From Escherichia coli (GTDB lineage Bacteria > Pseudomonadota > Gammaproteobacteria > Enterobacterales > Enterobacteriaceae): a stretch of 64,000 nt of DNA. Shown here one piece after another: positions 2 through 19,689 of the stretch. Location of the stretch: the NCBI RefSeq assembly GCF_024502345.1, contig NZ_JALDNN010000001.1, one strand, 5' to 3'. The translations under genes were made by a program, and so were the position numbers. The notes under the pieces were generated by a model. That model had not been told where the DNA came from. It worked only from the letters and a program-made list of their open reading frames with translations, and did no database searches. Every line of letters begins with the position of its first letter. Within the stretch, counting starts at the first letter, position 1.

Positions 2-340
2 AAGGCAGATATCCGGACTTCTGAGCACAGCAGCAAGAAACCCGGCGTTGTTGGTACTGCCCTGACCAAACAGTGGGCGAAATACACGGGACGGGAAGCT
101 GTCCTGCTGCTGTTCCAGAATGGCGTGAATCGCATCAAGCGCTATCCATTCACGGGAGAACAGGCCCCCTTCGCCATTGGCGGTTAAGCGCAGGGCAAGA
201 CTCCCGGTTTCACCCTCTTTACCCAGCTCATACGTCAGCAGTCCTTTACTGTGGGGGCTGATTTTCTCGGCTTCCCCCATGTAGAACACGGTATAGCTTT
301 CGGTGACGGCGGCTTCGGTAGCGATTTTTTTCTTACTCAT
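2..340 (-). CDS. hypothetical protein, N-terminal 113 codons only; gene continues beyond window start
   Basis: Hand translation from ATG at 340..338 is open to position 2; start overlaps the stop of the upstream gene (ATGAGTAA). Not in ORF track because its stop lies outside the window. Confidence 0.45.
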   Translation of the reverse strand, partial: MSKKKIATEAAVTESYTVFYMGEAEKISPHSKGLLTYELGKEGETGSLALRLTANGEGGLFSREWIALDAIHAILEQQQDSFPSRVFRPLFGQGSTNNAGFLAAVLRSPDICL

Positions 341-713
341 GGTTCAGCGCCTCAATCAGGTTCCGGAGTTGAGTGATAACGGTCGTGTCCGGGAACACCA
401 GATAGATACCCTGTCCGTTATCGCAGACGATACCGAGCAGGAGATACCAGCCATCATCAAGTGCGGTGACGTATTCCGGGTTAGCCAGTGCCACTGCCAG
501 CAGCGGGTCTTCGGGGAGGGTGTCATCGTGGTTGAGATGCCAGAGCAGGGTTCCCGTTTCGTTCCAGAAGGTGGTAAACAGGTCGATATCATCGACAGGG
601 CCAAGGATTTCATTGCTGAGGGCCGCCAGTGCGGAGGCGGGCAGGTTGAGAAGGGGAAGACTGGTGGGGGTCGTGAGTTTAAACATGATTATCTCCATAA
701 ATGATTGATTCAT
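333..713 (-). CDS. hypothetical small acidic protein (126 aa; may start at an internal Met)
   Basis: Six-frame ORF; D/E-rich; stop overlaps start of the next minus-strand gene; AT-rich upstream region 714..1200. Confidence 0.45.
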   Translation of the reverse strand: MNQSFMEIIMFKLTTPTSLPLLNLPASALAALSNEILGPVDDIDLFTTFWNETGTLLWHLNHDDTLPEDPLLAVALANPEYVTALDDGWYLLLGIVCDNGQGIYLVFPDTTVITQLRNLIEALNHE

Positions 714-967
714 ATTGATAATATGTTTTCAAATGACTTTTAGTTACATTTTATTTACGTTGTTTGCTTTTTCTGGATTATGCCCTTAAATTTAGTTCTA
801 ACCTGGCATTAAATCCCGTTTTTTTTAGATTTTTAGAGTTTTATAAAGAAATTAGCATGTGCTGTTTTAACTGAAAATGAGAGAAGGCTTGCGCACAATT
901 GCTATTGATTTTCTTACTTATTTTCTCAATCACAAAACGCCTTAAATAGTTCAAAAAACAATCAACA

Positions 968-1038
968 CCCCATAATCGATATTATTTATGGGGAGAAACG
1001 ACGTTTAAGCCTGAAAGTGGGGGAGTGGCACTTTCAGG
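968..1038. other. two adjacent perfect hairpins (8-bp stem at 968..993, 10-bp stem at 1010..1038) upstream of integrase gene
   Basis: ccccataa/ttatgggg and cctgaaagtg/cactttcagg inverted repeats read directly; no flanking T-run. Confidence 0.3.
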
Positions 1039-1204
1039 AGATTAAGGAGGCAAACAGGCCTCTTTAACGCGTGTTTTTCTCACCAAAATGTCAGAGTCGG
1101 TGATTTGCACTTCAGTATTTCTGCCAATACTATTCGCTCCATGTGCTGGCCAGCATCTAACTCAATACCCTTAATCTGTATTAATTGAGCGAGATGTATG
1201 CATT

Positions 1205-2515
1205 ATGAAACCCGATAGTTCTTTAAACCAAATAACGCAGACAATGAAACGGAATGATGTTGATTCTGTGGATAGTCGCTTTTTTGAGTCAGCGCAAAAC
1301 ATGAAAACCAGCGTTGACGTTGAAGATTGCTGCGTTGAAGTGATGGTTCGACATCACAGCCCAAAGAATCAAAGAGAGGCATTCACTAAAGCTTTTTTTG
1401 ATGAGTGTAAAATCCGTGCAGTACAAACTGGCCGGACTATCGAAGCCAGCGATACAAAATGTACCGGGCTTAAGGCTATATTCCACTCATCCGGACGCAT
1501 TAAGTTTATTGTCCGCAAAAGTATTCGCGGAAAGAATGTTTACGTTGCAGTAGGAAGTTACCCTGAATTTTCCATTAATAACGCAAGGGAACATGCCTTT
1601 AAAATAATTCAGGAGCTTAAGGCTTCCGTTGAGACTTATGGTGAGCGTTTTCTTACTCACAGTAAAATGACGTTTAATGAGCTTGTGGATGAGTATGAGA
1701 AAAGCGTACTCAGCACGGGCGTTAAGCGTTCAGCTAACACCGATCTTTCTAAGATCCGTAAATACCTGCGCCCTCTTCTCGGTGCCAAAAAGCTGGCAGG
1801 TATGACGGAGGCAGATATTCTGAGCTATCTGCATAATCTCGATCTCAAGCCTGCCACCCGCAACCGCCATCTGGCGCTCATTAAAGCGGTGTTTACCAGG
1901 GCAATACGCATGGGATACATCAGCCGCTCTCCGGCGCTTTATATCAAAGCGCTGCCTGAAGTGACGTCAGATCGCCGTGCCATGGATGACTCCCAGCTTC
2001 AGCGCTGGATGGACGTCTGTGAGCGCTGGCGTAATGGTAAACCCGATCATGAAGCCCTTGCTCTTCTCATGTTCCTTGCCCTGACGGGGCTGCGTCTGGG
2101 GGAAACCCGTCACCTTCGTCTTGAAGATGTGGACTGGAGCCGCAAGGTTATCACCCTTCGCCATACCAAAAACGGCAAACTACGCCGTGTACCGGTATGT
2201 GATAAGGCTTTCGTTCTTCTGACAGAACAGCGTCAGCATCTGGGTGATGAAGGCTGGGTATTTCCGGGCAAGGGAACCGACAATCCGGTTGCTGAGCCGC
2301 GTCGCCTGCAAAAACGACTTTGTGAGGCTGCGGGTATTCCACCGTTCACCATCCATGAGATGCGTCATACCTTTGCGACAAAGCTCATTGAGAGCGGGGC
2401 CGACATTCACACCGTCAAAGACTTATTGGGTCACAGCACTATCAAAGTAACGGAGCTTTACTTGCACGCTTCCCCGGCGCGTTACCACGAAGTCGTTAAC
2501 CGGGCGATGGGGTAA
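1205..2515 (+). CDS. tyrosine recombinase / P4-type integrase (436 aa)
   Basis: C-terminal catalytic motif HxxR...Y (HTFATKLIESGADIHTVKDLLGHSTIKVTELYLH); N-terminal arm-binding-like segment. Confidence 0.85.
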   Translation: MKPDSSLNQITQTMKRNDVDSVDSRFFESAQNMKTSVDVEDCCVEVMVRHHSPKNQREAFTKAFFDECKIRAVQTGRTIEASDTKCTGLKAIFHSSGRIKFIVRKSIRGKNVYVAVGSYPEFSINNAREHAFKIIQELKASVETYGERFLTHSKMTFNELVDEYEKSVLSTGVKRSANTDLSKIRKYLRPLLGAKKLAGMTEADILSYLHNLDLKPATRNRHLALIKAVFTRAIRMGYISRSPALYIKALPEVTSDRRAMDDSQLQRWMDVCERWRNGKPDHEALALLMFLALTGLRLGETRHLRLEDVDWSRKVITLRHTKNGKLRRVPVCDKAFVLLTEQRQHLGDEGWVFPGKGTDNPVAEPRRLQKRLCEAAGIPPFTIHEMRHTFATKLIESGADIHTVKDLLGHSTIKVTELYLHASPARYHEVVNRAMG

Positions 2516-2584
2516 CAACCTTCACTCAACGGTATGGTTTTTAACTATGGTTCTGATGCACCCGTTTTCTGACGGTGGCGTAAT

Positions 2585-4513
2585 TTGATGGTAATACACA
2601 TGAATAAAAAAGTGACAACTAATGTTCCTAAGGTTTCCGGGATTAAGCGTATTCGCGCTTTTGCTGACCGCGATAAAAATTTCAACAAAATGTCGGAAGC
2701 AATTATCAGGCGTGCTGAAAACACTGAGGTCGGTGAAGATGATATCGCTTCACTCGGTATTGGTGATGGGCTGCCACGGCATTATGTGAATACGGCTAAT
2801 GGCCTTTTCTACATCGGTGGACAGAAACCTGTGCAGGTTTGCACCACGCCAGTTGTGCCTGTCGCCCTGTTTTGTGGAAAAGATAAGGAGTCCGGTCTTG
2901 GGATCAGCCTGATGACCGGTAACGGGCTGGGTAAGTATGTTAAGGCCCTGGTACGCTTTGAGGATATTGTTCAGAGCGGTGCTCAGGTAGTAGGCAAACT
3001 GGCAGATCGTGGATTTTGTGTTGGCTCCTCTCCACAGCAGTTTGCCCTTTTTGACCGTTTTCTTCAGCGCTGCCGGAGTTTACCGCTGCCTGTCTATCTG
3101 ATGGCAGATGCGATGGGATTCGTTTCGGAGGATATGGCCTTTTTACATGGTCATGAGCCCGTTGTGACCTCTCTGACCGGGTTTGATTATCTACTGCCGG
3201 GATTCCGCGTGCGTCCCGGACTGCACAAAGGTGGGGCCCTGGAGGAGTGGATTAACCTCATCCGGGAAAATGTCCATGGCTGGGCGCAGACCTTTGCACT
3301 GAGTGCGTCCTTTGCTTCGATGCTTCTGGTTCCTGCCGGTATGGATGTGGGCATGTTTCATTTTCACGGCGTATCCACCACCGGTAAAACGCTTCTCCTG
3401 ATGCTGGCTGCATCGGTCCATGGTGATGGCAGCGAGCCGGGTAGTGGGGGGAATGTAAATATTATTCGCTGGAATACCACGCCTAACGCGATGGAGCGCC
3501 TTCTCGCTGACTATTCCGGTCTGGTCGCCTGCGTCGATGAACTGGGTGCGAGTAATCATAAGCAACTTTCCTCACTGCTTTACAACATTACGTCAGGTAC
3601 GGCAAAAGAGCGCCTGAACCGTGGCCTGACGGCAGATGAGCCGTTTAAATGGCGCATGTTTATTCTCTCCACCGGTGAGATGTCAATCTCCGAAAAGCTG
3701 GCTGAACAGAAAGCCGTGTTACAGGGAGGGCAGGAGCACAGGGCCATCAGTATGGAACTGTTGCCTGAGGATGCTCAAAAACCGGATGAACCGGTATCAG
3801 AAACACGTGCCCGTGCAGATGCACTGAAGACGGGGCTGGCAGAGGCTTATGGTCATGCCGGGCCTGCATTTATCGGCAAACTGTTATCCGGGAAAAATAC
3901 GGCTGGCGGTCTTCGCACCTACGCAGAGTTTTCATCCTGGCTCCAGGAACAGACAGATGATTGCTGTAACGCACTGGAAGAGGCCCTGAGGGATGAGGGG
4001 CGTGATATTACCCGCGTTCAGCGGCGCGGACTGAAAAGATTTGCGCTGGTATGGCTGGCAGGAGAGAAGGCGCTGAAATATGGCCTTTTACCTTTCGAAA
4101 GCGATGCGGTGGCTGAATCCGTTATGTCCGCTGCACGACGCTGGCTGGATGATAACCAGAATCAGTATAACCCGGTGCGTAACATGCTGGAGGAGCTTCA
4201 GCTGACGCTGGTGACAAAAAGCAGCAGGCACTTTATCACCCTGCGTGACGAACATGCCCGATGCCCGGGAGATATGTGGGGATTCGTCCATTACAAAACC
4301 GGCGACTTCCTGATTTATGAATCGGTGTTTGAAAAGCTCTGTTCTGAAAAGGGACTTAAGACCGTTGATGTGGCCAGACCGTTAGAGCGTTCCGGTTATC
4401 TGCTTGGCGAAAGTGCCGGACACTATAAAAAAAGAGCGCTGAAGACGATGGCGCAGTCTTACTACCAGGTCAAAAAAGCGTTTCTGAAATGCAATGTGAT
4501 GACCGAATTTTAA
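2585..4513 (+). CDS. DUF927-like / P4 alpha-like SF3 helicase-domain protein (642 aa)
   Basis: Walker A GVSTTGKT and Walker B-like VACVDELG; immediately downstream of integrase; domain assignment from memory. Confidence 0.6.
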   Translation: MMVIHMNKKVTTNVPKVSGIKRIRAFADRDKNFNKMSEAIIRRAENTEVGEDDIASLGIGDGLPRHYVNTANGLFYIGGQKPVQVCTTPVVPVALFCGKDKESGLGISLMTGNGLGKYVKALVRFEDIVQSGAQVVGKLADRGFCVGSSPQQFALFDRFLQRCRSLPLPVYLMADAMGFVSEDMAFLHGHEPVVTSLTGFDYLLPGFRVRPGLHKGGALEEWINLIRENVHGWAQTFALSASFASMLLVPAGMDVGMFHFHGVSTTGKTLLLMLAASVHGDGSEPGSGGNVNIIRWNTTPNAMERLLADYSGLVACVDELGASNHKQLSSLLYNITSGTAKERLNRGLTADEPFKWRMFILSTGEMSISEKLAEQKAVLQGGQEHRAISMELLPEDAQKPDEPVSETRARADALKTGLAEAYGHAGPAFIGKLLSGKNTAGGLRTYAEFSSWLQEQTDDCCNALEEALRDEGRDITRVQRRGLKRFALVWLAGEKALKYGLLPFESDAVAESVMSAARRWLDDNQNQYNPVRNMLEELQLTLVTKSSRHFITLRDEHARCPGDMWGFVHYKTGDFLIYESVFEKLCSEKGLKTVDVARPLERSGYLLGESAGHYKKRALKTMAQSYYQVKKAFLKCNVMTEF

Positions 4514-4562
4514 CCCTGAATAAAACCATTTTGACTGAATAACAACGAATAGAAGGTGATGT

Positions 4563-4919
4563 ATGATTTTTGAATCAGACCAGTACTATGACGGTTTTCC
4601 TCACGCTATCAGCAGCGAAAATGAAGAAAAAACCTCATTCAATGATTACGCTCTGGTTAACACACTGGCGGAGTGCCTGTATCACGACATTTCTCGTGAA
4701 ATCTTCGATGGCAGTGAGCCGGCGCTCCGGGCCGTCATTGCCAACGGTCAGATTAAATTCCTGGCTCGTTATACGCTTAGAGGGGCCTGCTATTATGAAC
4801 CCCTCGGCACATTTCCACGTATGCCCGTTAACGTCGCGCGTGAACGAGCACGTGAACTCTATAACAGATTTGATGATCACCGGGTGCCGGATGAAGAATA
4901 TGGGGCCATCCCGTTCTGA
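4563..4919 (+). CDS. hypothetical protein (118 aa)
   Basis: ORF 50 bp downstream of the helicase-like gene on the same strand. Confidence 0.45.
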   Translation: MIFESDQYYDGFPHAISSENEEKTSFNDYALVNTLAECLYHDISREIFDGSEPALRAVIANGQIKFLARYTLRGACYYEPLGTFPRMPVNVARERARELYNRFDDHRVPDEEYGAIPF

Positions 4920-4925
4920 CTGATG

Positions 4926-4958
4926 GCTGAACAGTAAAAAAAAGCAGGGGCACTTGCC
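4926..4958. terminator. putative bidirectional terminator between convergent genes
   Basis: Imperfect hairpin gcagggg...cctctgc flanked by A-run and T-run. Confidence 0.35.
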
Positions 4959-4973
4959 TCTGCTTTTCTGTTA

Positions 4974-6158
4974 TCACAAGGACGGTAGCTGAGCCGTTAT
5001 CCTTTCCGCCAGTAACTGACTGGTGTTCTGTAAGCGCTGAGGATGAAGATGCGCATACCGTTGTGAAGACTGACTGCTGCGGTGCCCCAGTTGAGCCTGA
5101 ACGTCATACAGTGTTCCGCCGTAGGACACGATGAGGGCGGCAACCGAATGGCGGCAGGTATGAATACACACTTCTTTGTCGAAAATTCCCGCCCGACGAA
5201 CGATACGCTGAAAGGCTTTAACGGGGTTATTCAGCGGCATTCCTTGTTTTTTACCGATAAACAACCACGGATTTCCACGCTGTGTTGGCAGTGTTCTGAT
5301 TACGTCCATCGCCAGTGAATTAAGATGAACAATCCGTCCATAGCCATTCTTGGTTTCCGGGAGCCATAGGGTGCGTTTAACCGGGTCAACATGCTCCCAC
5401 TTAGCCAGACGCAGTTCATCACGACGAAGGCCGGTCAGTAACAGCAGTTTGACATAGCGGGCAGCTACGGGGCTGGTATCGTTATCGGCGGAGAGAAAAA
5501 TACGACGAATTTCGTCCTCGGTAAAATAACGCTGTCGGGCGTTGTTCTCCCTGAGTAGCTGTACCACCCTTGCCGGATGAACAGAGGTCATGCTTTGCCT
5601 TCCGGCCCATGTAAAGACGGCTTTAATGAGTACGATGACACGGTTACAGGTAGCCGCTGACAGGGAAGTACTTAACGTCTGCTGAAGGCGCAGAATGCTC
5701 GCTGGTGTGATATCGCTCAGCAGCCTCTGACCAATGGCGGGACGGATATGATCGCGGTAGCGCTGAACATCCTTTCCCCAACTGCGTTTAGCGGATTTTG
5801 CCCATGGCAGATAATGCTGATTAAAGAGTTCATCGAACGTCAGCTCCATTCTCTTGTTTTCACGCTCCTGCTTAGGGTCAGTGCCGGTGGCAAGGGAACG
5901 TTTGTGTTCTATGGCAATCTGACGAGCAAGATTGACGTCCACTTCAGGCCAGTGACCAATGGCGATGGCGCGTTTTCGTCCATGATAAAGGTAGCGTAGC
6001 AAAAACTTTTTACGACCTTCTCTTCTGCTGACCAGACACTTGAGGCCGGAAATCTCAGTGTCGCTGTATTCGGCATCGGTACTGCGTGCATCGGATGTGT
6101 TAGGGGGCAGGGATTTAATGAGCTGATTAGTAAAACGGAAGCGTTTGGGGGTGGACAT
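4974..6158 (-). CDS. P4-type tyrosine integrase (394 aa)
   Basis: Catalytic motif HTCRHSVAALIVSYGG...LGHRSSQSSQRYAH; arm-binding-like N-terminus; tRNA-proximal. Confidence 0.85.
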   Translation of the reverse strand: MSTPKRFRFTNQLIKSLPPNTSDARSTDAEYSDTEISGLKCLVSRREGRKKFLLRYLYHGRKRAIAIGHWPEVDVNLARQIAIEHKRSLATGTDPKQERENKRMELTFDELFNQHYLPWAKSAKRSWGKDVQRYRDHIRPAIGQRLLSDITPASILRLQQTLSTSLSAATCNRVIVLIKAVFTWAGRQSMTSVHPARVVQLLRENNARQRYFTEDEIRRIFLSADNDTSPVAARYVKLLLLTGLRRDELRLAKWEHVDPVKRTLWLPETKNGYGRIVHLNSLAMDVIRTLPTQRGNPWLFIGKKQGMPLNNPVKAFQRIVRRAGIFDKEVCIHTCRHSVAALIVSYGGTLYDVQAQLGHRSSQSSQRYAHLHPQRLQNTSQLLAERITAQLPSL

Positions 6159-6503
6159 ATAACCTCCTGTGACTGGTGTAAAGAACGTCAGGGTTGCCCC
6201 ATCCCCGGCACGGCGCTGTTAATGGCTGAGTTGATTTTCTGGTGTGGCTAAGGGAATGCTGGTGCCACATGGGATGAATGAAGACGAGAAATACAGCAAA
6301 AACAGGCGTTACGGTCTGCTTCTGGTCTTAAGGGGAAGATTGCCGTTGGGGAAGAGTTCACAGAAATAATATGTGTTTCAGTCGGGTATAATTACATGTG
6401 ATAAGGGCAAAGAGCGTGCTTTGCTAAAATTTGACATGTTGAAGTCCACTCTTTTTAACGATGTCGTTATGGACGACATGGCGAGTCTTGCTTAGATAAT
6501 TAA

Positions 6504-7091
6504 TCAAAATACTGTGACTTTGGACCCACGTTTACCACATTTCGAGCACTTGAGCCGAGTTTTAAGGTCTTCTAGAGTTACTCCCATTGCAACATACTGC
6601 TTAAGGTCGTTCAAAGTAAGGATTGTGGGGAGACGACAAAAAAATCCAGAGGCGCAACATACCAGCATCTCCGAGCCGTTTTTTAACCAGTCCTCAAGAT
6701 TATCGTGCGATCTCGTTAGTCGTTCGATATCCGCTCTCCACTGCTGGATTTCATTACCGTTCCAGTCGATATTTAGCTCGATTTGTTTGGCAACGAACCG
6801 GTGTTTACCTCTGTTAACTGTGGGTTCATAGTCCTTACGTTGATCTTTGATGAGATCAGCCTCATAGAGGAAATCATCGTTTTTGTTGTCGGTATAATCA
6901 AAAATTACCTTAATTAAATCAATATCAACGTTTTGTTTTTTGATGAATAAACCCTGTGTTCCGCTTCCGTTCAAGTCCCGGCTAAAGTTAATGTTGAGAT
7001 GGCGGCGGAGTGAGAAGAAATAGCTGTGGCCGTGCATAGCCAATGCAAGTCTGGCTATGTCATTGCAGTTGTAGGGTGTGTGTGTATCCAT
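6504..7091 (-). CDS. hypothetical protein (195 aa), AT-rich, C-terminal CxxC
   Basis: ORF between integrase and tRNA-Phe; low GC; ends CSKCGKRGSK. Confidence 0.45.
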   Translation of the reverse strand: MDTHTPYNCNDIARLALAMHGHSYFFSLRRHLNINFSRDLNGSGTQGLFIKKQNVDIDLIKVIFDYTDNKNDDFLYEADLIKDQRKDYEPTVNRGKHRFVAKQIELNIDWNGNEIQQWRADIERLTRSHDNLEDWLKNGSEMLVCCASGFFCRLPTILTLNDLKQYVAMGVTLEDLKTRLKCSKCGKRGSKVTVF

Positions 7092-7607
7092 GATGTTACC
7101 TTTAATTCATATTCGGTCGAGAGCGTCAGGAAACTATCCTAATATACCTTTTTTCTACACCAGTATTTGGATCAATTTTCATCCCTTTGGCCTGCTTCTT
7201 GTTGATTAACTCTCAGCGATGTTTGAAATAGGCCATCAGTGGTCAGAATCATTTTTTACTTCCACTTTTTGCTCAGATTTGACCCTAAGGTCTAAGTTCC
7301 AATACGTTTCGCTCAATTACTATCACCCCTGATAAATTATTCTATGATGACGTGGAGGGCGGGGGATTCAGGCAATGTTAAGAAATGAAAGGTTTAAATG
7401 CGAATATTACAGGTGGAGGAGGTGGTGGATACCCCCGACTGACAAGGGGAGTTGATGGCGCTGAGTTCACCCCCTTGCCTGAAGAGGAGTCTCCCCGGTC
7501 TTCCCCCGGGGGGGATGGCAGGTAATTTGTTGTTAAATAAAGTAAATTATGAAATCCCCCATTTCCCCCGTATTCTCTGCTTCATTATGAATAATCTTAG
7601 AGAAAGG

Positions 7608-7764
7608 AACCGTAAAGGACCGTAGAAAGACCGTAGCTGTGAGGTGAGGGAAGGCACATCAGAGGATGTTGAGGTGTCTAAAAGTAACGAACATCTGCAA
7701 AAATGGTGAAAAATCCAGCAAGAAAATAACGTGTTGCAACGACCAGAAATCTACCGTAGCTAAG
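7608..7764. repeat. four direct copies of accgta(g/a) near the tRNA-Phe 3' end; candidate integrase arm sites
   Basis: Copies at 7608, 7619, 7630 and 7753 read directly. Confidence 0.3.
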
Positions 7765-7805
7765 AAAGGAAAAAGCCCCGCTTTTCAGCGAGGCCTTATG
7801 AATAT

Positions 7806-7881
7806 TGGTGCCCGGACTCGGAATCGAACCAAGGACACGGGGATTTTCAATCCCCTGCTCTACCGACTGAGCTATCCGGGC
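7806..7881 (-). tRNA. pheV: tRNA-Phe (anticodon GAA)
   Basis: Reverse complement reads GCCCGGATAGCTCAGTCGGTAGAGCAGGGGATTGAAAATCCCCGTGTCCTTGGTTCGATTCCGAGTCCGGGCACCA, the canonical E. coli tRNA-Phe. Confidence 0.95.
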
Positions 7882-7986
7882 AACGGGGCGCATTAAACCT
7901 GATTCGCCTCGTCTCGTCAATCAAATTTCTTCAATTTACTGCAGACTGCACAATCTATCATCACTTTGCCGCTATTGCACGCATTG

Positions 7987-8694
7987 TCAGGCAAACCAGG
8001 CGGTCCAGGCGGCGGAAAGCGGCATTGCCAGAAGGAGTGCTGGAAGCATGTTGACCACCGGGAACATTTTAATGCCACAGATGCGTAATCCGGTTGCCAG
8101 CAGCAATAAACCGCCTACGGCGCTGAAGTCTGCCATCATCGACGGTGTGGTCAGCGGTAATATCAGCGCGGCAGCCCACGCCAGCGTTAACTGGATGATC
8201 AGTAATGGGATACTAATTACCGACACCGCAATACCCAGCGAGCAGGCGAAGATCATCGCCGTAAAGAAATCAAGAAATGACTTGGCGATTAAAATACTCG
8301 GATCGCCGGTCATCCCTTCGTTCATCGCCCCGAAGATCCCGGTGCCGCTGGCGCAAAACAGGACAATAATCGCGACATAATTCTGAATAAAAGATTCATG
8401 CGCTGGCTTCTTACGTGAGTGACGAAACAGATTTTGTGCTTTGGCGACTGCTGTATTGACACCTTTCTCCAGCAAACAAATTTCGCCAATTAGAGCGCCA
8501 AGTAGCGTAGCTAAAACCATCGCTGGAAGGTTGGCGCATTTCACAACCAGTAAAATACCAATCCCCAGCGATGCCAGACCAAAAATAGATGTCATGGAGA
8601 CGCGGATACGTTCCGGTAAGCGTTGGCTGAGCAGTGCGCCGAGAACGCCACCCAGTAAGACTGCACTAGCGTTGATAAAAGGGCCGATGACCAC
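7987..8694 (-). CDS. yqgA: DUF554 family inner membrane protein (235 aa)
   Basis: Hydrophobic 235-aa ORF between pheV and speC, as in K-12. Confidence 0.8.
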   Translation of the reverse strand: MVIGPFINASAVLLGGVLGALLSQRLPERIRVSMTSIFGLASLGIGILLVVKCANLPAMVLATLLGALIGEICLLEKGVNTAVAKAQNLFRHSRKKPAHESFIQNYVAIIVLFCASGTGIFGAMNEGMTGDPSILIAKSFLDFFTAMIFACSLGIAVSVISIPLLIIQLTLAWAAALILPLTTPSMMADFSAVGGLLLLATGLRICGIKMFPVVNMLPALLLAMPLSAAWTAWFA

Positions 8695-9091
8695 AAGAGT
8701 TCCTGTTAGCTGTATTGTTTGATTTTCTTATTATGAACTTTTTGCCTTGTTGATGGCTTGTCTGGTCGCAAAGTCCTGGCTTGCACGCTTTAGCGAAAGG
8801 TGCCATGATTGCGCGAATTTTCTCCTCTCTGTACGGAGTTTGCCCGATGCACGCCATCTCCTTACATTCTCTCGCTTATCGCCGTTTCGCGCGAAACGTT
8901 TCCCTTTCTATGTTACTGCTCATGCGGTGAAGTTAACGCACGCTCACTGCAGGACAACAGTAAAATCAGAGCGTTTCTGCTTTTACTGATGTCTGGCGGT
9001 CGGAGCTGGTGACCAGTTTGACCCATATCTCATGGGGCAGGGTTTTCCACCTTGTCCGGTATTCTTACTTCCCCGAAACGGGTTTGCGCTT

Positions 9092-11227
9092 ATGAAATCA
9101 ATGAATATTGCCGCCAGTAGTGAACTGGTATCCCGACTTTCTTCTCATCGTCGCGTGGTGGCGTTGGGAGATACTGATTTTACGGACGTCGCGGCAGTCG
9201 TCATTACCGCTGCGGATAGTCGCAGTGGCATTCTTGCGTTGCTTAAGCGCACCGGTTTTCATCTACCGGTGTTTTTGTATTCCGAACATGCTGTTGAATT
9301 ACCTGCGGGCGTTACGGCGGTAATCAACGGCAACGAGCAGCAGTGGCTGGAGCTGGAATCCGCAGCCTGTCAGTATGAAGAGAATTTGCTGCCACCGTTT
9401 TATGACACGCTGACGCAGTACGTTGAGATGGGCAACAGCACCTTTGCTTGCCCTGGACATCAACATGGTGCGTTTTTTAAAAAGCATCCTGCCGGACGCC
9501 ATTTTTACGATTTCTTTGGTGAGAACGTCTTTCGCGCCGATATGTGTAACGCTGACGTAAAATTGGGCGATCTGCTTATTCATGAAGGATCGGCGAAAGA
9601 TGCGCAGAAATTCGCAGCCAAAGTCTTTCATGCCGATAAAACCTATTTTGTCCTGAACGGCACATCGGCAGCGAATAAAGTGGTGACGAATGCGCTGTTA
9701 ACGCGTGGCGATCTGGTGCTCTTCGACCGTAACAACCATAAGTCGAATCATCACGGCGCGCTGATTCAGGCGGGGGCGACGCCGGTCTATCTGGAAGCTT
9801 CACGCAACCCGTTTGGTTTCATTGGCGGTATTGATGCGCACTGTTTTAATGAAGAGTATCTGCGCCAGCAAATTCGCGACGTTGCGCCAGAAAAAGCCGA
9901 GCTGCCGCGCCCGTTTCGCCTGGCGATTATTCAGCTGGGAACCTATGACGGAACTGTCTATAACGCCCGTCAGGTGATCGATACCGTTGGGCATCTGTGT
10001 GATTACATTCTGTTTGATTCCGCGTGGGTCGGTTACGAACAGTTTATCCCGATGATGGCGGATAGCTCGCCGCTGCTATTAGAACTTAACGAAAACGATC
10101 CGGGGATCTTTGTGACTCAGTCGGTGCACAAACAGCAGGCGGGATTCTCACAGACGTCGCAGATCCATAAAAAAGATAACCATATCCGCGGACAGGCGCG
10201 TTTTTGCCCGCATAAGCGGTTGAATAACGCCTTTATGCTCCATGCTTCTACCAGCCCTTTCTATCCGCTGTTTGCTGCACTGGATGTTAACGCCAAAATT
10301 CATGAAGGGGAGAGTGGGCGTCGGCTGTGGGCTGAGTGCGTTGAGTTGGGTATTGAGTCGCGCAAGGCTATTCTTGCGCGCTGTAAGCTGTTCCGCCCGT
10401 TTATCCCGCCCGTTGTTGATGGCAAATTGTGGCAGGATTATCCGACATCTGTGTTAGCCAGCGACCGCCGTTTTTTCAGTTTTGAGCCGGGGGCGAAGTG
10501 GCACGGCTTTGAAGGATATGCCGCGGATCAGTATTTTGTTGATCCGTGCAAGCTGTTACTCACTACACCAGGTATCAATGCCGAAACCGGCGAATATAGC
10601 GACTTTGGCGTTCCGGCGACGATTCTGGCGCACTATCTGCGTGAGAACGGCATTGTGCCGGAGAAGTGCGATCTCAACTCCATTCTGTTCTTATTAACTC
10701 CGGCGGAAAGCCACGAGAAGCTGGCACAACTGGTAGCGATGTTGGCGCAGTTTGAACAGCATATTGAGGATGACTCGCCGCTGGCTGAGGTGTTGCCGAG
10801 CGTTTATAACAAATATCCGGTGCGCTATCGCGACTACACCCTGCGCCAGTTGTGTCAGGAGATGCACGATCTGTATGTCAGTTTCGACGTCAAAGACCTA
10901 CAAAAAGCGATGTTCCGCCAGCAGAGTTTCCCGTCAGTGGTGATGAACCCCCAGGATGCGCATAGCGCTTATATTCGCGGTGAAGTGGAGTTGGTGCGGA
11001 TTCGTGATGCCGAAGGGCGAATTGCGGCAGAAGGGGCGTTGCCTTATCCACCTGGCGTGCTTTGCGTGGTACCCGGGGAAGTCTGGGGTGGGGCGGTTCA
11101 ACGTTATTTCCTTGCACTGGAAGAAGGGGTGAATTTGTTGCCGGGATTTTCGCCGGAGCTGCAAGGTGTTTATAGCGAAACCGATGCGGATGGCATGAAA
11201 CGGTTGTACGGTTATGTGTTGAAGTAA
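9092..11227 (+). CDS. speC: ornithine decarboxylase, constitutive (711 aa)
   Basis: Start MKSMNIAASSELVSRL at internal Met of ORF 9032..11227; length matches. Confidence 0.9.
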   Translation: MKSMNIAASSELVSRLSSHRRVVALGDTDFTDVAAVVITAADSRSGILALLKRTGFHLPVFLYSEHAVELPAGVTAVINGNEQQWLELESAACQYEENLLPPFYDTLTQYVEMGNSTFACPGHQHGAFFKKHPAGRHFYDFFGENVFRADMCNADVKLGDLLIHEGSAKDAQKFAAKVFHADKTYFVLNGTSAANKVVTNALLTRGDLVLFDRNNHKSNHHGALIQAGATPVYLEASRNPFGFIGGIDAHCFNEEYLRQQIRDVAPEKAELPRPFRLAIIQLGTYDGTVYNARQVIDTVGHLCDYILFDSAWVGYEQFIPMMADSSPLLLELNENDPGIFVTQSVHKQQAGFSQTSQIHKKDNHIRGQARFCPHKRLNNAFMLHASTSPFYPLFAALDVNAKIHEGESGRRLWAECVELGIESRKAILARCKLFRPFIPPVVDGKLWQDYPTSVLASDRRFFSFEPGAKWHGFEGYAADQYFVDPCKLLLTTPGINAETGEYSDFGVPATILAHYLRENGIVPEKCDLNSILFLLTPAESHEKLAQLVAMLAQFEQHIEDDSPLAEVLPSVYNKYPVRYRDYTLRQLCQEMHDLYVSFDVKDLQKAMFRQQSFPSVVMNPQDAHSAYIRGEVELVRIRDAEGRIAAEGALPYPPGVLCVVPGEVWGGAVQRYFLALEEGVNLLPGFSPELQGVYSETDADGMKRLYGYVLK

Positions 11228-11231
11228 GAAT

Positions 11232-11268
11232 AAAAAAAACGGGTCGCCTTCTGGCGACCCGTTTTTCT
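11232..11268. terminator. bidirectional intrinsic terminator between speC and nupG
   Basis: A-run, stem acgggtcgcc/ggcgacccgt, T-run. Confidence 0.7.
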
Positions 11269-11276
11269 TTGCGTAA

Positions 11277-12533
11277 TTAGTGGCTAACCGTCTGTGTGCC
11301 TGTCGGGACACGAACGTGTTTATATTTGAACATCGCCATGAACGCGAAGGCCAGAACCACGGAGTAACCAGCGAAAATCAACCATACGGTCTGCCAGTCG
11401 GTAATGCCGTTTTGGGTGTACATCTCAACAACTTTACCGCTCACGATGCCGCCGAGGATACAGCCGAAGCCGTTAGTCATCATCAGGAACATCCCTTGTG
11501 CACTGGCGCGAATTGCCGGGCTAACTTCTTTTTCGACAAACACCGAACCAGAGATGTTGAAGAAGTCGAATGCGCAACCGTAAACGATCATCGACAGTAC
11601 CAGCAGTACAGTACCGAACGGAGTCGGGTCGCCGTAAGCAAACAGCGCAAAACGCAGGATCCACGCCACAATACTGATCATCATTACGTTCTTAATACCG
11701 TAGCGGCTTAAGAAGAACGGGATGGTCAGAATGAACAGGGTTTCAGAGATCTGCGAAATCGACATGATGATTGACGCATGCTGCACAATAAAGCTGCTGG
11801 CAAACATCGGATCTTTGTCGAAGCTGTGCAGGAAGGTATTACCGAACATGTTGGTAATCTGCAGTTCCGCGCCCAGCAGCATTGAGAAGATAAAGAAGAT
11901 TGCCATACGCTTGTTTTTAAACAGCGCGAATGCATCGAGGCCCAGCAGGGTTGTCCAGCTCTGATTCGCTTGCTGTTTAGCAACCGGAATATGCGGCAGA
12001 GTCAGGGTAAACAGAACCAGAATGGCGGAAAGTGCTGCGCCAATATACAGCTGCATGTGGCTTAATTCGAAGCCAGACAGGCTCACCACCCACATTGCCA
12101 TGATAAAGCCGATGGTGCCCCAGATACGGATTGGCGGGAAGTCAGTAACGATATCCATCCCGGCATTTTGCAGGCGATAGTAAGAGATGGTGTTGATTAA
12201 CCCAAGCGTTGGCATATAAGCAAACGAGTTAATCAATATCACAAGGAACATCGCCTCCGGTGTCGTGACCTGTGCCGCCATGAACAGCGTGATAGCGCCA
12301 ATGGTGTGGCAAATGGCATATACCCATTTCGCACTTAACCATTTGTCGGCCACAATCCCCAGCAGCGCAGGCATAAAGACCGCTGCGATACCCAGTGAGC
12401 TATAAACTGCGCCAATAGAAGCACCGTCAAACTTCAGGGTAACAAACATATAGGAGCCGAGGGTCGTCAGCCAACTTCCCCACAGACAGAACTGCAGAAA
12501 AGAGAGGATTTTCAGCTGCAGCTTAAGATTCAT
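11277..12533 (-). CDS. nupG: nucleoside:H+ symporter (418 aa)
   Basis: Start MNLKLQLKILSFLQF at internal Met; length matches. Confidence 0.9.
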   Translation of the reverse strand: MNLKLQLKILSFLQFCLWGSWLTTLGSYMFVTLKFDGASIGAVYSSLGIAAVFMPALLGIVADKWLSAKWVYAICHTIGAITLFMAAQVTTPEAMFLVILINSFAYMPTLGLINTISYYRLQNAGMDIVTDFPPIRIWGTIGFIMAMWVVSLSGFELSHMQLYIGAALSAILVLFTLTLPHIPVAKQQANQSWTTLLGLDAFALFKNKRMAIFFIFSMLLGAELQITNMFGNTFLHSFDKDPMFASSFIVQHASIIMSISQISETLFILTIPFFLSRYGIKNVMMISIVAWILRFALFAYGDPTPFGTVLLVLSMIVYGCAFDFFNISGSVFVEKEVSPAIRASAQGMFLMMTNGFGCILGGIVSGKVVEMYTQNGITDWQTVWLIFAGYSVVLAFAFMAMFKYKHVRVPTGTQTVSH

Positions 12534-12734
12534 GTTAATTTCCTCACATCGTGATGCGGATGAGTGTTTGAAAAAGCACATTTGACCGTGCGAGATGATG
12601 GGATTCTATCAACTTCGCGGACTGGTTTTTTGTTACCTGTGGCAAATAATTGCAAACATTCCCAATTTGCAAAACGAAATTGTGATGTGGATAACATTTT
12701 TGCCCCTGAGTATCGTCAGGGGCGGTTAATGGAA

Positions 12735-13814
12735 TTATCGGCGGCGGTAGGATTTTTGCGCGGTATTCACTTTATAAAGATAACGGCGAGATTCCGCAGA
12801 GGGATGGCGGGTCGTCAGCGTCTGATAAACATCGCCCGGCGTCATGGTGTTAATAATATTGGCAGCCTGAATCTTATCATTCGAAAAGACTCGCAGCACG
12901 CTGCCTGCGCCGCCGTTATAGGCGGTGATGACGGCATAACGCCGCGATGTTGGGTTATCAATTCCGCCGAGATAAACATTGTTCAGCATCGCCAGATACG
13001 CGGTGCCGGTATCAATATTGCTGGCAGGATCAAACAAGAAACTGCGGCTCGGCGTGCCGGATTTCCCCTGCGAGCGGAACACATCTTTCCCGGCAGTATG
13101 TTGTACCACCTGCATTAATCCCAGCGCATCGGAACGGCTGACCGCATACGGGTTAAAGGAAGATTCGGTCTGCATAATTGCCAGAATCAGCGACTCATCA
13201 ACGCCATATTTCCGTGACGCCTGGCGGACCATGCCGAGATATTTGTGCGCACGTTTATCAAGGTGGTTCGGTACCATGTTAATGGTGACGCTGTAGATGA
13301 TACGCAGCCCGTTACTGCGGCTTTGCAGACGGTTTTTCAGCAGATAATCCGCGAAGTTGCTTGCGCGACCTTCCCAGCGAATCGGCTGCCCGGTGTTGTC
13401 CACCACCTGACCGTAAAGGAAAGGTTCTTTCGAACTCGTAATATCATCAACGTCGGAATAGAGATCGACCGAACTCGGATCGTCACCCATCAGCAACGTT
13501 TTGATAATTGCCCGGCGCAAATGCGCGGCAGGTTCTGTCCCGGCGATAGTTTCGATAGTAATCGTACCGTCATCGAAGTTGATGTGGCTGCGGGTCTGAT
13601 ATTGATCGGTGTATTTCACGTAGTCCTTAGGACCGGCGATCACCACCTCTTTGAATCCCCAGATGTTCTCAATATTGTGGGCAAATTGCCCCATCAGAAT
13701 ATCAAAACCGTTGGTATCTTTGACCCAGGCTTCGTTATAGGTATCGCCTTTTTTGGTCGTCGAACAGGAGATGAGCAACGGCGCAATCAAAGCCAGCGCG
13801 AGATATTTTTTCAT
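12735..13814 (-). CDS. mltC: membrane-bound lytic murein transglycosylase C (359 aa)
   Basis: Lipoprotein signal [18 protein letters not shown]; length and synteny. Confidence 0.9.
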
Positions 13815-13878
13815 CATTCCGGGTGCGTGTTGTGTTTGTTTTTATGCAAGTTGCCGGAGGCGTGCTCCGGCACTGTTT

Positions 13879-14157
<279 letters not shown>

Positions 14158-17518: not shown

Positions 17519-18565
17519 ATGGAGTTTTTCAAAAAGACGGCACTTGCCGCACTGGTTATGGGTTTTAGTGGTGCAGCATTGGCATTACCCAATATCACCA
17601 TTTTAGCAACCGGCGGGACCATTGCCGGTGGTGGTGACTCCGCAACCAAATCTAACTACACAGCGGGTAAAGTTGGCGTAGAAAATCTGGTTAATGCGGT
17701 GCCGCAACTAAAAGACATTGCGAACGTTAAAGGCGAGCAGGTAGTGAATATCGGCTCCCAGGACATGAACGATAATGTCTGGCTGACACTGGCGAAAAAA
17801 ATTAACACCGACTGCGATAAAACCGACGGCTTCGTCATTACCCACGGTACCGACACGATGGAAGAAACCGCTTACTTCCTCGACCTGACGGTGAAATGCG
17901 ACAAACCGGTGGTGATGGTCGGCGCAATGCGCCCGTCCACGTCCATGAGCGCAGACGGTCCATTCAACCTGTATAACGCGGTAGTGACCGCAGCTGATAA
18001 AGCCTCCGCTAATCGTGGCGTGCTGGTGGTGATGAACGACACCGTACTGGACGGTCGCGATGTCACCAAAACCAACACCACCGACGTAGCGACCTTCAAG
18101 TCTGTTAACTACGGTCCTCTGGGATACATTCACAACGGTAAGATTGACTACCAACGTACCCCGGCACGTAAGCACACCAGCGATACGCCATTCGATGTCT
18201 CTAAGCTGAATGAGCTGCCGAAAGTCGGCATCGTTTATAACTACGCTAACGCATCCGATCTTCCGGCTAAAGCACTGGTAGATGCGGGCTATGATGGCAT
18301 CGTTAGCGCTGGTGTGGGTAATGGTAACCTGTATAAATCCGTGTTCGACACCCTGGCAACCGCCGCGAAAAACGGCACTGCAGTAGTGCGTTCTTCCCGC
18401 GTACCGACGGGTGCTACCACTCAGGATGCTGAAGTGGATGATGCGAAATACGGCTTCGTCGCCTCTGGCACGCTGAACCCGCAAAAAGCGCGCGTCCTGC
18501 TGCAGCTGGCTCTGACGCAAACCAAAGATCCGCAGCAGATCCAGCAGATCTTCAATCAGTACTAA
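17519..18565 (+). CDS. ansB: L-asparaginase II, periplasmic (348 aa)
   Basis: Signal peptide plus LPNITILATGGTIAGGGDS active-site region. Confidence 0.9.
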   Translation: MEFFKKTALAALVMGFSGAALALPNITILATGGTIAGGGDSATKSNYTAGKVGVENLVNAVPQLKDIANVKGEQVVNIGSQDMNDNVWLTLAKKINTDCDKTDGFVITHGTDTMEETAYFLDLTVKCDKPVVMVGAMRPSTSMSADGPFNLYNAVVTAADKASANRGVLVVMNDTVLDGRDVTKTNTTDVATFKSVNYGPLGYIHNGKIDYQRTPARKHTSDTPFDVSKLNELPKVGIVYNYANASDLPAKALVDAGYDGIVSAGVGNGNLYKSVFDTLATAAKNGTAVVRSSRVPTGATTQDAEVDDAKYGFVASGTLNPQKARVLLQLALTQTKDPQQIQQIFNQY

Positions 18566-18572
18566 TCACCTC

Positions 18573-18598
18573 GCCCCGGTATCGTGCCGGGGCTTTTT
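18573..18598 (+). terminator. intrinsic terminator of ansB
   Basis: gccccgg...ccggggc hairpin followed by TTTTT. Confidence 0.7.
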
Positions 18599-18681
18599 CA
18601 CTTCAGACTTACGTCCATTGCCAATTTTCATTACCCTAATGATAATCACCGGAATAAATTATTCCGCGTGAGGTTTTTCGG

Positions 18682-19689
18682 GTGAAAAAGCAATGGATTG
18701 TTGGCACGGCACTGCTTATGTTGATGACTGGTAATGCCTGGGCAGATGGCGAACCGCCAACTGAAAATATCTTAAAAGATCAATTCAAAAAGCAGTATCA
18801 CGGCATTCTCAAGCTTGATGCTATCACCTTAAAAAATCTTGATGCTAAGGGTAATCAGGCCACCTGGTCAGCGGAAGGCGATGTCACTTCCAGTGACGAT
18901 CTCTATACCTGGGTCGGTCAGTTGGCAGATTACGAACTGCTCGAACAGACCTGGACGAAAGATAAACCGGTAAAATTCTCGGCGATGTTAACCAGTAAAG
19001 GAACGCCCGCGTCTGGCTGGTCGGTGAACTTTTACTCTTTTCAGGCGGCAGCCAGCGATCGTGGGCGGGTGGTCGACGATATCAAAACGAATAATAAATA
19101 TCTGATCGTGAATAGCGAAGATTTCAATTATCGCTTTAGTCAGCTTGAATCTGCGTTGAATACCCAGAAGAACTCGATTCCTGCGCTGGAAAAGGAAGTG
19201 AAAGCGCTTGATAAGCAAATGGTGGCGGCGCAGAAAGCAGCGGATGCATATTGGGGAAAAGATGCAAACGGTAAGCAAATGACCCGCGAAGAAGCCTTTA
19301 AAAAAATTCACCAACAGCGTGATGAGTTTAATAAACAGAACGATAGCGAGGCGTTCGCGGTTAAATATGACAAAGAGGTTTATCAACCGGCGATTGCGGC
19401 ATGTCATAAACAGAGTGAAGAGTGTTATGAAGTGCCGATTCAGCAGAAACGAGATTTCGATATCAACGAACAACGGCGACAGACTTTTCTGCAATCACAA
19501 AAACTCAGCCGTAAATTGCAGGATGACTGGGTAACGCTTGAAAAAGGGCAATATCCGTTAACGATGAAAGTTTCAGAAATAAACAGTAAAAAAGTCGCGA
19601 TTTTGATGAAAATTGACGATATCAACCAGGCTAATGAACGCTGGAAAAAAGATACCGAACAACTGCGGCGCAATGGGGTGATTAAGTAA
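18682..19689 (+). CDS. yggM: DUF1202 periplasmic protein (335 aa)
   Basis: Signal peptide MKKQWIVGTALLMLMTGNAWA; synteny. Confidence 0.8.
   Translation: MKKQWIVGTALLMLMTGNAWADGEPPTENILKDQFKKQYHGILKLDAITLKNLDAKGNQATWSAEGDVTSSDDLYTWVGQLADYELLEQTWTKDKPVKFSAMLTSKGTPASGWSVNFYSFQAAASDRGRVVDDIKTNNKYLIVNSEDFNYRFSQLESALNTQKNSIPALEKEVKALDKQMVAAQKAADAYWGKDANGKQMTREEAFKKIHQQRDEFNKQNDSEAFAVKYDKEVYQPAIAACHKQSEECYEVPIQQKRDFDINEQRRQTFLQSQKLSRKLQDDWVTLEKGQYPLTMKVSEINSKKVAILMKIDDINQANERWKKDTEQLRRNGVIK

Follow-up and report, generated by a model that had tools for sequence, protein, structure and literature searches.

A gene assigned by sequence to the IsaB family of phage P1 occupies a variable cargo slot between tRNA-Phe and a P4-type integrase in Escherichia coli

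The window analysed here is a 64,000-nucleotide stretch of Escherichia coli DNA, and the locus under study consists of a tRNA-Phe gene, a gene of 195 codons and a tyrosine integrase gene, all three in the same orientation (Table 1). Because yqgA and speC flank the tRNA on its right side, the tRNA was identified as pheV of E. coli; the core sequence shares 99.8% identity with E. coli. A preliminary description had placed an open reading frame of 195 aa between the tRNA and a P4-type integrase, and this arrangement was borne out. The reading frame starts with ATG, and the integrase combines the Arm-DNA-bind_3, Phage_int_M and Phage_integrase domains and lies beside the 3' end of the tRNA in the same orientation, which is the configuration of a P4-type island. 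The distances given for the non-coding flanks were right on one side only: the spacer towards the integrase measures 345 bp (6159-6503), in agreement with the earlier value of about 350 bp, while the spacer towards the tRNA measures 714 bp (7092-7805) instead of about 570 bp. Likewise, the gene had been called AT-rich, and its GC content is indeed below that of its surroundings, but the difference is moderate (0.43 for the gene and 0.41 for the cassette that carries it; integrase 0.516, core 0.50). A second att repeat is absent from the window and the island therefore reaches beyond coordinate 1. On the far side of the integrase lies a module (1205-4919) that is conserved in approximately 125 E. 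coli genomes and whose three genes all converge on the integrase. These encode a second tyrosine recombinase of 436 aa (1205-2515, plus strand), a 642-aa DUF927 primase/helicase-like protein (phrog_8841, 1e-41; SCCmec Cch1-like, 2e-22) and a 118-aa product that is annotated by PGAP in other strains as Arm DNA-binding domain-containing or DUF4102. At the left window edge, a 126-aa open reading frame (333-713, minus strand) matches phrog_32947 (5e-14), which carries the PHROG label unknown function.

Table 1 Features of the tRNA-Phe to integrase interval and its surroundings in the window.
Feature	Coordinates	Strand	Basis or remark
P4-type tyrosine integrase, 394 aa	4974-6158	-	Pfam Arm-DNA-bind_3 5e-13, Phage_int_M 8e-6, Phage_integrase 4.5e-23
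Conserved integrase-upstream region, left slot border	6159-6397	-	Shared with islands E8, 0H25 and NT1F10, 84-92% identity
Exchangeable cargo cassette, 0.94 kb	6398-7338	.	Gene plus 106 bp downstream and 247 bp upstream; GC 0.41
IsaB-family CDS (by sequence), 195 aa	6504-7091	-	Open reading frame, ATG start
C-terminal basic four-Cys domain	6507-6671		Residues 141-195
N-terminal alpha/beta domain of the 195-aa protein			Residues ~1-140
Semi-variable segment rich in G/C runs	7339-7554	.	Present in window, E8 and NT1F10; replaced in 0H25
46-aa Gly-rich ORF, MKGLNANITGGGGGGYP...	7385-7525	+	
Conserved attL-proximal region, right slot border	7555-7805	-	Four islands, 86-96% identical overall
tRNA terminator hairpin (terminator-like site)	7772-7797		
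tRNA-Phe (GAA), pheV, integration site	7806-7881	-	ARAGORN; Rfam tRNA 68.3 bits

The 195-codon reading frame is a genuine protein-coding gene under purifying selection. Pairwise comparison with seven homologues, whose GC content ranges from 0.365 to 0.548, gave dN/dS values of 0.07-0.26, and of 100 E. coli genomes that carry the gene, 95 have an intact frame with 99% identity or more. In approximately 100 complete E. coli genomes PGAP labels the product 'hypothetical protein'. Consensus scans of the minus strand detected no sigma-70-like site in the 7092-7338 interval upstream of the gene and no terminator past its stop codon. That the frame is spurious, or a decaying pseudogene without function, is scarcely credible: the empty promoter prediction, the rarity of the family and a truncation by IS3 in one strain would agree with such a view, but a spurious frame is excluded by the selection signature, which holds across hosts of GC 0.37-0.55, and the 19 residues invariant in 90 sequences, the confident structural model and the preserved frame among carrier genomes likewise stand against it. 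The preliminary description had named a conserved housekeeping role, or homologues devoid of a coding signature, as the outcomes that would count against it. Neither was found and its finding consequently survives, in corrected form.

The chief correction concerns the designation of the gene as an orphan, which proved wrong. Among 5.8 billion proteins searched, 107 homologues were detected (E<=1e-3, 48-84% identity), and IsaB of phage P1 is among the relatives. The P1 protein aligns with the window protein over 100% of its length at 56% identity (E=6e-69, tblastn against GenBank phages). In addition, the window protein matches phrog_30162 with E=3.8e-75 across profile positions 9-201 of 201, a family whose PHROG label is 'unknown function'. 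By sequence, the window gene is thus a member of the IsaB family, with P1 IsaB as prototype and PHROG 30162 as the family. P1 IsaB (YP_006489.1, P1_gp020, 'IS1-associated' gene B) has 201 aa compared with 195 aa here and contains the same four cysteines. Like the window gene, P1 isaB stands alone, is low in GC and belongs to a hypervariable part of a mobile element. The sites themselves differ: the window gene occupies a tRNA-integrase slot, and P1 isaB is flanked in a plasmid-prophage by ssb and the dar operon, with IS1 next to it. The P1 gene order is ssb - isaA - IS1 - isaB - hxr, adjoining the dar operon, and the P1 isaB promoter, PisaB, is a prediction only. In phage P7, nmpC stands at the isaB position and a 34-aa isaB remnant is left. 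Comparisons of P1-like phage-plasmids have listed isaA-IS1-isaB as variable region 2, one of eight hypervariable low-GC regions (PMC9603915), and the isaB region as RD-2 (PMC6906374), and a genome-wide CRISPRi screen scored isaB as non-essential for P1 growth (PMC10695390). No paper in the literature searched assigns a function to P1 isaB, and the match to it, at 56% identity only, supplies a family name and not an activity.

Members of the IsaB family are few, scattered and confined to the accessory genome. Only 115 relatives emerged when 1.84 billion cluster representatives were searched with a profile, and the family is carried by only eight of 100,044 species-representative genomes. Hosts of the homologues include Serratia, Aeromonas and Salmonella together with many Alphaproteobacteria, among them Ferrovibrio, Novosphingobium, Dankookia, Roseicella, Phenylobacterium and Paracoccus, and most homologues contain an N-terminal insert of approximately 27 residues. 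Plasmid records with a match number 119, mostly from E. coli and E. fergusonii, and the match is full-length in 25 of them. Among 2.9 million viral contigs the family was detected in eight, seven of which are P1-like. No homologue was found in virulent phages across these contigs and 50,697 phage records; the carriers are temperate or integrated elements only. Two distant and longer relatives, P0125 (374 aa) and P0144 (379 aa), have N-terminal extensions of approximately 175 residues. By eye, the extension of P0125 looks like a degenerate duplicate of the N-terminal domain of the family itself, and that of P0144 contains no Pfam domain. A stand-alone C-terminal-domain protein (P0208) sits on a contig too short for its context to be read, as does the distant homologue P0113.

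Searches of Pfam, NCBIfam and PADLOC returned nothing significant for the window protein, for distant members of the family or for the C-terminal domain alone, and a PDB profile search with the full-length protein gave no match. Structure prediction, which had been proposed as a check on the gene, was carried out with AlphaFold2 on a 90-sequence alignment and produced a confident model (pLDDT 90.6, pTM 0.85) for which no known structural relative was found; the N-terminal alpha/beta domain in particular is without a fold match. As modelled, the protein is soluble and has two domains, and no transmembrane segment was detected in it. The model begins with two N-terminal helices, continues with a five-stranded antiparallel sheet and two more helices, and ends with a C-terminal module in which a strand, two successive cysteines, a second strand, two short helices, a CxxC motif and a final strand follow each other. 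This CxxC, which the preliminary description had correctly pointed out, is C182-S-K-C185 and forms a conserved set of four cysteines with C146 and C152. Nineteen residues are invariant in the 90 sequences, including C146, C182, C185, D39, G42, G44, Q46, Y76, P90, N93 and G95, and C152 is kept in 84 of the 90. When 31 distant members are considered along with the 90 close ones, the four cysteines and the core formed by D39, G42, Y76, F99 and W135 remain invariant or nearly so. The C-terminal domain carries a charge of +5 and the last 20 residues a charge of +7, while the helical linker is acidic.

The cysteine arrangement of the window protein (Cys-x5-Cys, 29 residues, Cys-x2-Cys) weakly resembles a rubredoxin-like or zinc-ribbon knuckle. 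A profile of the C-terminal domain matched rubredoxin 1rb9 marginally (E=0.0097) and over 26 residues only, which correspond to the second knuckle, where the window motif 'G-x-S/T-L-E-D-L...C-x-x-C-G' is similar to that of rubredoxin. The Pfam Rubredoxin model reached at best 2e-3, in one member of the family. The rubredoxin-like spacing of 29 residues between C152 and C182, together with the marginal profile match, led us to read the C-terminal domain as probably a rubredoxin-like metal knuckle that binds zinc. It nevertheless departs from rubredoxin: the first knuckle is C-x5-C and not C-x2-C, and the domain is highly basic, with an inserted helical hairpin.

Comparison with related islands indicates that the gene is carried as cargo. 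BLAST homology between the window and the islands of strains E8 and 0H25 covers 4907-6397 and resumes from 7339 (E8) or 7555 (0H25). The breakpoints at 6397/6398 and 7338/7339 are common to the islands and accordingly define the bounds of the cassette. The integrase family is present in 133 of 5,426 complete E. coli genomes, at 85-99% identity, and the slot beside it exists in at least three alleles. The IsaB-like cassette occupies it in approximately 100 of the 133 integrase-carrying genomes, an unrelated 472-aa gene on the opposite strand in 11 (as in strain E8), and a 228-bp filler without a gene in eight (as in strain 0H25). The 472-aa occupant shows partial similarity (E=2e-9) to HEC-07, a candidate that was originally identified inside Hma systems (bioRxiv 10.1101/2024.01.29.577857). 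The island of strain NT1F10 is mosaic with respect to the window: the cassette is 99.1-99.6% identical, in coding and non-coding parts alike, while the integrase is 90.1% and the integrase-upstream region 92.1% identical. A cassette at 99% beside an integrase at 90% indicates that diverged backbones have recently exchanged the cassette, and it speaks against slot content that follows the integrase phylogeny. As a simple cause of the mosaic identity, stronger selection on the gene was considered and does not fit, the non-coding part of the cassette being about 99% identical as well. The transfer from one diverged backbone to another presumably proceeds by recombination within the flanking conserved regions. 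The idea that the gene is a moron or inserted cargo is therefore well supported by the three alleles, the common breakpoints and the mosaic identity, and the comparison of islands that had been suggested as a check found the slot to be polymorphic. Presence or absence within sharp, conserved borders and the deviating GC content are both what is expected of a moron.

Next to the cassette, the G/C runs of the 7339-7570 region include, for example, GGGGGAAATGGGGGA at 7556-7570 (read on the minus strand), and the 'empty' slot of 0H25 (5420-5647 of its locus) has a different sequence with similar G-run motifs. No convincing RNA structure was found in 7340-7600 (fold z-scores of -0.85 on the minus and -2.17 on the plus strand), and Rfam identified nothing but the tRNA in the non-coding flanks. 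In E. coli TUM2820 an IS3 insertion cuts off the 5' end of the IsaB-like gene (22504-24283 of that locus), and the deeper part of the pheV island of this strain (365-12070 of the locus) contains a type I restriction-modification system (HsdRMS), a DUF262 protein and another tyrosine recombinase.

The borders of the slot contain repeated motifs. Within the attL-proximal region, invariant GCTACGGT repeats are located at 7604-7638 and 7738-7761, and in four islands whose identity is otherwise 86-96% these GCTACGGT(C/A) repeats show no difference at all. Upstream of the integrase gene, the ACGGT-type repeat recurs at 6309-6327 as an inverted copy. The repeats and their inverted copy are probably arm-type sites of the integrase that bracket the cargo slot; if so, the arm region of att would enclose the cargo. 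Two insertion sites are used by this island module, pheU on the dicD/dsbD side (PM4 and E8) and pheV on the yqgA/speC side (the window, 0H25 and NT1F10), indicating that one integrase family uses both of the identical tRNA-Phe genes.

Outside of this slot, homologue loci always belong to mobile elements and no partner gene is conserved among them. Adjacency to a tRNA was considered as a trait of the family and rejected, as no tRNA is present in 16 other loci. In Tn4371-like ICEs the homologue lies upstream of an HTH_17-RepA-ParA-relaxase-TraG module, and other homologues adjoin TraG/RlxS or a TraG-like coupling protein. The Serratia homologue is located at the edge of a prophage remnant, the Aeromonas homologue at an island edge, and a further homologue lies beside UmuDC and Dam on another element. 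In a P2-like prophage the homologue occupies a hotspot flanked by the invertase/sheath side and by the tail-fibre genes, and it is encoded on the other strand from the late genes. Between a vestigial invertible tail-fibre segment of this prophage (with paired Caudo_TAP / Gp53-like_C genes and a resolvase-type invertase) and the tail-fibre gene stands a bSEFIR gene, and a RelA_SpoT-domain gene (PDC-S33-like, 6e-18) is inserted among the baseplate genes of the prophage; these features occupy 10001-14040 and 18122-19228 of that locus. On viral contig L034 the neighbours of the homologue are all of unknown kind.

Several of these loci contain recognised defence genes. In Aeromonas, the Septu genes PtuA (3e-139) and PtuB (3e-86) follow directly downstream of the homologue in the same direction, and in the P2-like prophage bSEFIR (4e-97) is approximately 2 kb away. 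In Roseicella, HmaA (E=0) is adjacent to the homologue, directly upstream and divergent. Neither HmaB nor HmaC was among the tested reading frames that flank the Roseicella copy, so that embedding in a complete Hma system is not supported. In Novosphingobium a PLD-helicase and a DUF1156 methylase (E=0) are located 450 bp from the homologue, which is convergent with the PLD-helicase, and in Pseudomonas saliphila a type I-like methyltransferase lies at approximately 3 kb. In total, a defence system was found within about 3 kb in five of approximately 14 independent contexts, a raw count without a matched background rate, and a recognised defence neighbour was absent in the remaining nine.

The reading that we prefer, tentatively and as plausible yet somewhat short of probable, is that the window gene encodes a single-protein anti-phage or superinfection-exclusion factor of the resident element that acts by binding. 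The gene would then be an accessory gene carried by mobile elements for conflict with other mobile elements, and its product, with predicted expression from the resident element, would block phage or superinfection. The basic zinc domain might contact nucleic acid or an invader protein while the N-terminal domain would give specificity. As neither an enzymatic domain nor a membrane segment is present, such a protein would act by binding and not by catalysis. Our preference is founded on the confinement of the family to temperate or integrated elements, on the hotspots that it shares with defence systems, and on the strand of the P2-like prophage copy, opposite to the late genes. The preliminary description had proposed single-gene defence as one possible role, and this proposal is favoured by association only, namely by the defence neighbours, by the HEC-07-like alternative occupant of the slot and by the restriction-modification system and DUF262 protein in the TUM2820 island. 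It found no counterpart in PADLOC, as no family of the PADLOC-DB v2 defence HMMs matched the window protein or three homologues at E<=1. The nine contexts in which no defence neighbour was recognised and the empty promoter and terminator scans also count against it, as does, for P1, the place of the gene between ssb and dar.

Known systems offer two further comparisons. Defence and cargo hotspots of integrative elements, such as the P2 Z/fun and P4 hotspots, reportedly described by Rousset and co-workers in 2022, and the genes embedded in Hma systems, share with the window a fixed slot with conserved flanks. The likeness extends to the unrelated alternative occupants of the window slot, one of them HEC-07-like, and to the cassette exchange between diverged backbones, and among the homologues one lies in the P2-like tail-fibre/sheath hotspot beside bSEFIR and one abuts HmaA. 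Unlike the P2 and P4 hotspots, the window slot is situated between a tRNA attL arm region and the integrase of a non-phage island. The second comparison is with small single-protein prophage exclusion factors, for example P2 Tin, which are lone moron-type genes without an enzymatic domain. The window gene is likewise a lone moron-type gene in a temperate element whose product would act by binding a component of the invader; similarity of sequence or structure between the window protein and Tin-type factors was not detected.

Association with defence neighbours does not tell defence and counter-defence apart, and a small protein without enzymatic activity is no less typical of anti-defence inhibitors than of defence effectors. 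As the main rival reading, the protein might be a counter-defence or establishment factor that inhibits host immunity (for example restriction, Septu or Hma) or a competing element, which we consider unlikely though not far-fetched. A small, soluble, non-enzymatic protein of novel fold would suit this role, and carriers such as ICEs and P1 are transmissible. In P1 the gene is positioned beside ssb and the dar anti-restriction operon, and on ICEs it is found among accessory genes of the ssDNA-entry type, pointing to the relaxase side. The identity of 60-70% between alpha- and gammaproteobacterial members would fit a conserved target. Against these points, isaB is reportedly not part of the Dar system as genetically defined by Piya and co-workers in 2017, and the family is absent from virulent phages in the phage records and viral contigs covered above. 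Some of its members, moreover, neighbour chromosomal-type defence systems on non-transmissible islands, and the orientation of the copy in the P2-like prophage is that of lysogen-expressed morons.

Taken at the level of the family, the exclusion-factor reading and its counter-defence rival lead to a broader proposal, that the IsaB family, P1 isaB included, forms a new system of immunity or exclusion made of a single protein, or else a counter-defence factor of broad range, and is traded as a cassette. We regard this as possible but, on balance, doubtful. If true, it would join a fold without known relative to a rubredoxin-like zinc domain, exchanged among phage-plasmids, prophages, ICEs and tRNA islands from Alpha- to Gammaproteobacteria; if members of the family had neither defence nor counter-defence activity, the window gene would be an ordinary accessory gene. 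The IsaB name and family are already known, and what is new is the window copy as a member in a new kind of location. New, too, are the connection of a 'hypothetical' gene in E. coli to isaB, which has been without a function ever since the model phage P1 was annotated, the small, sharply bordered cargo slot with its at least three alleles between pheV or pheU and a P4-type integrase, the exchange of cassettes in it, the association with defence islands and the absence of a structural relative. High conservation, a fold without match and repeated occurrence beside Septu, Hma, bSEFIR and PLD-helicase make the family a candidate worth testing, and the tractability of E. coli and P1 makes it a cheap one for a new defence or counter-defence activity. 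It is a reasonable experimental lead and not a surprise, candidate defence genes from hotspots being numerous.

Two regulatory roles were weighed as well. The preliminary description had mentioned a regulatory factor, and the gene could be conceived as an element-specific regulator, either a DNA-binding recombination directionality factor or a regulator of the integrase gene located between attL and int. We judge this improbable, as the gene and the integrase are inherited independently. The position between the arm-type repeats and the int upstream region, the basic zinc domain and the placement upstream of the HTH_17-RepA-ParA module on ICEs would all be in keeping with such a regulator. The same integrase family, however, occurs with an empty slot or with unrelated cargo, and the cassette is exchanged independently of the integrase. 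Conversely, the homologues in P1, the P2-like prophage, Serratia and Aeromonas, as well as those on ICEs, are found without such an integrase or tRNA nearby. No Pfam HTH_17 or Xis match was obtained for the protein.

Still less probable, and in our judgement very much so, is a dedicated transcriptional regulator of neighbouring defence systems in the manner of BrxR or CapW. Regulators of the BrxR/CapW type stand upstream of many different defence systems, and the IsaB homologues directly upstream of PtuAB in the same direction and divergent from HmaA recall this arrangement, as does the basic C-terminal domain. Yet neither an HTH nor a WYL domain was detected, and the homologue in Novosphingobium is convergent with the PLD-helicase. 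What weighs most against this role is that the gene mostly stands alone, as it does in the window, P1, Serratia and the ICEs, where it has no defence operon to regulate.
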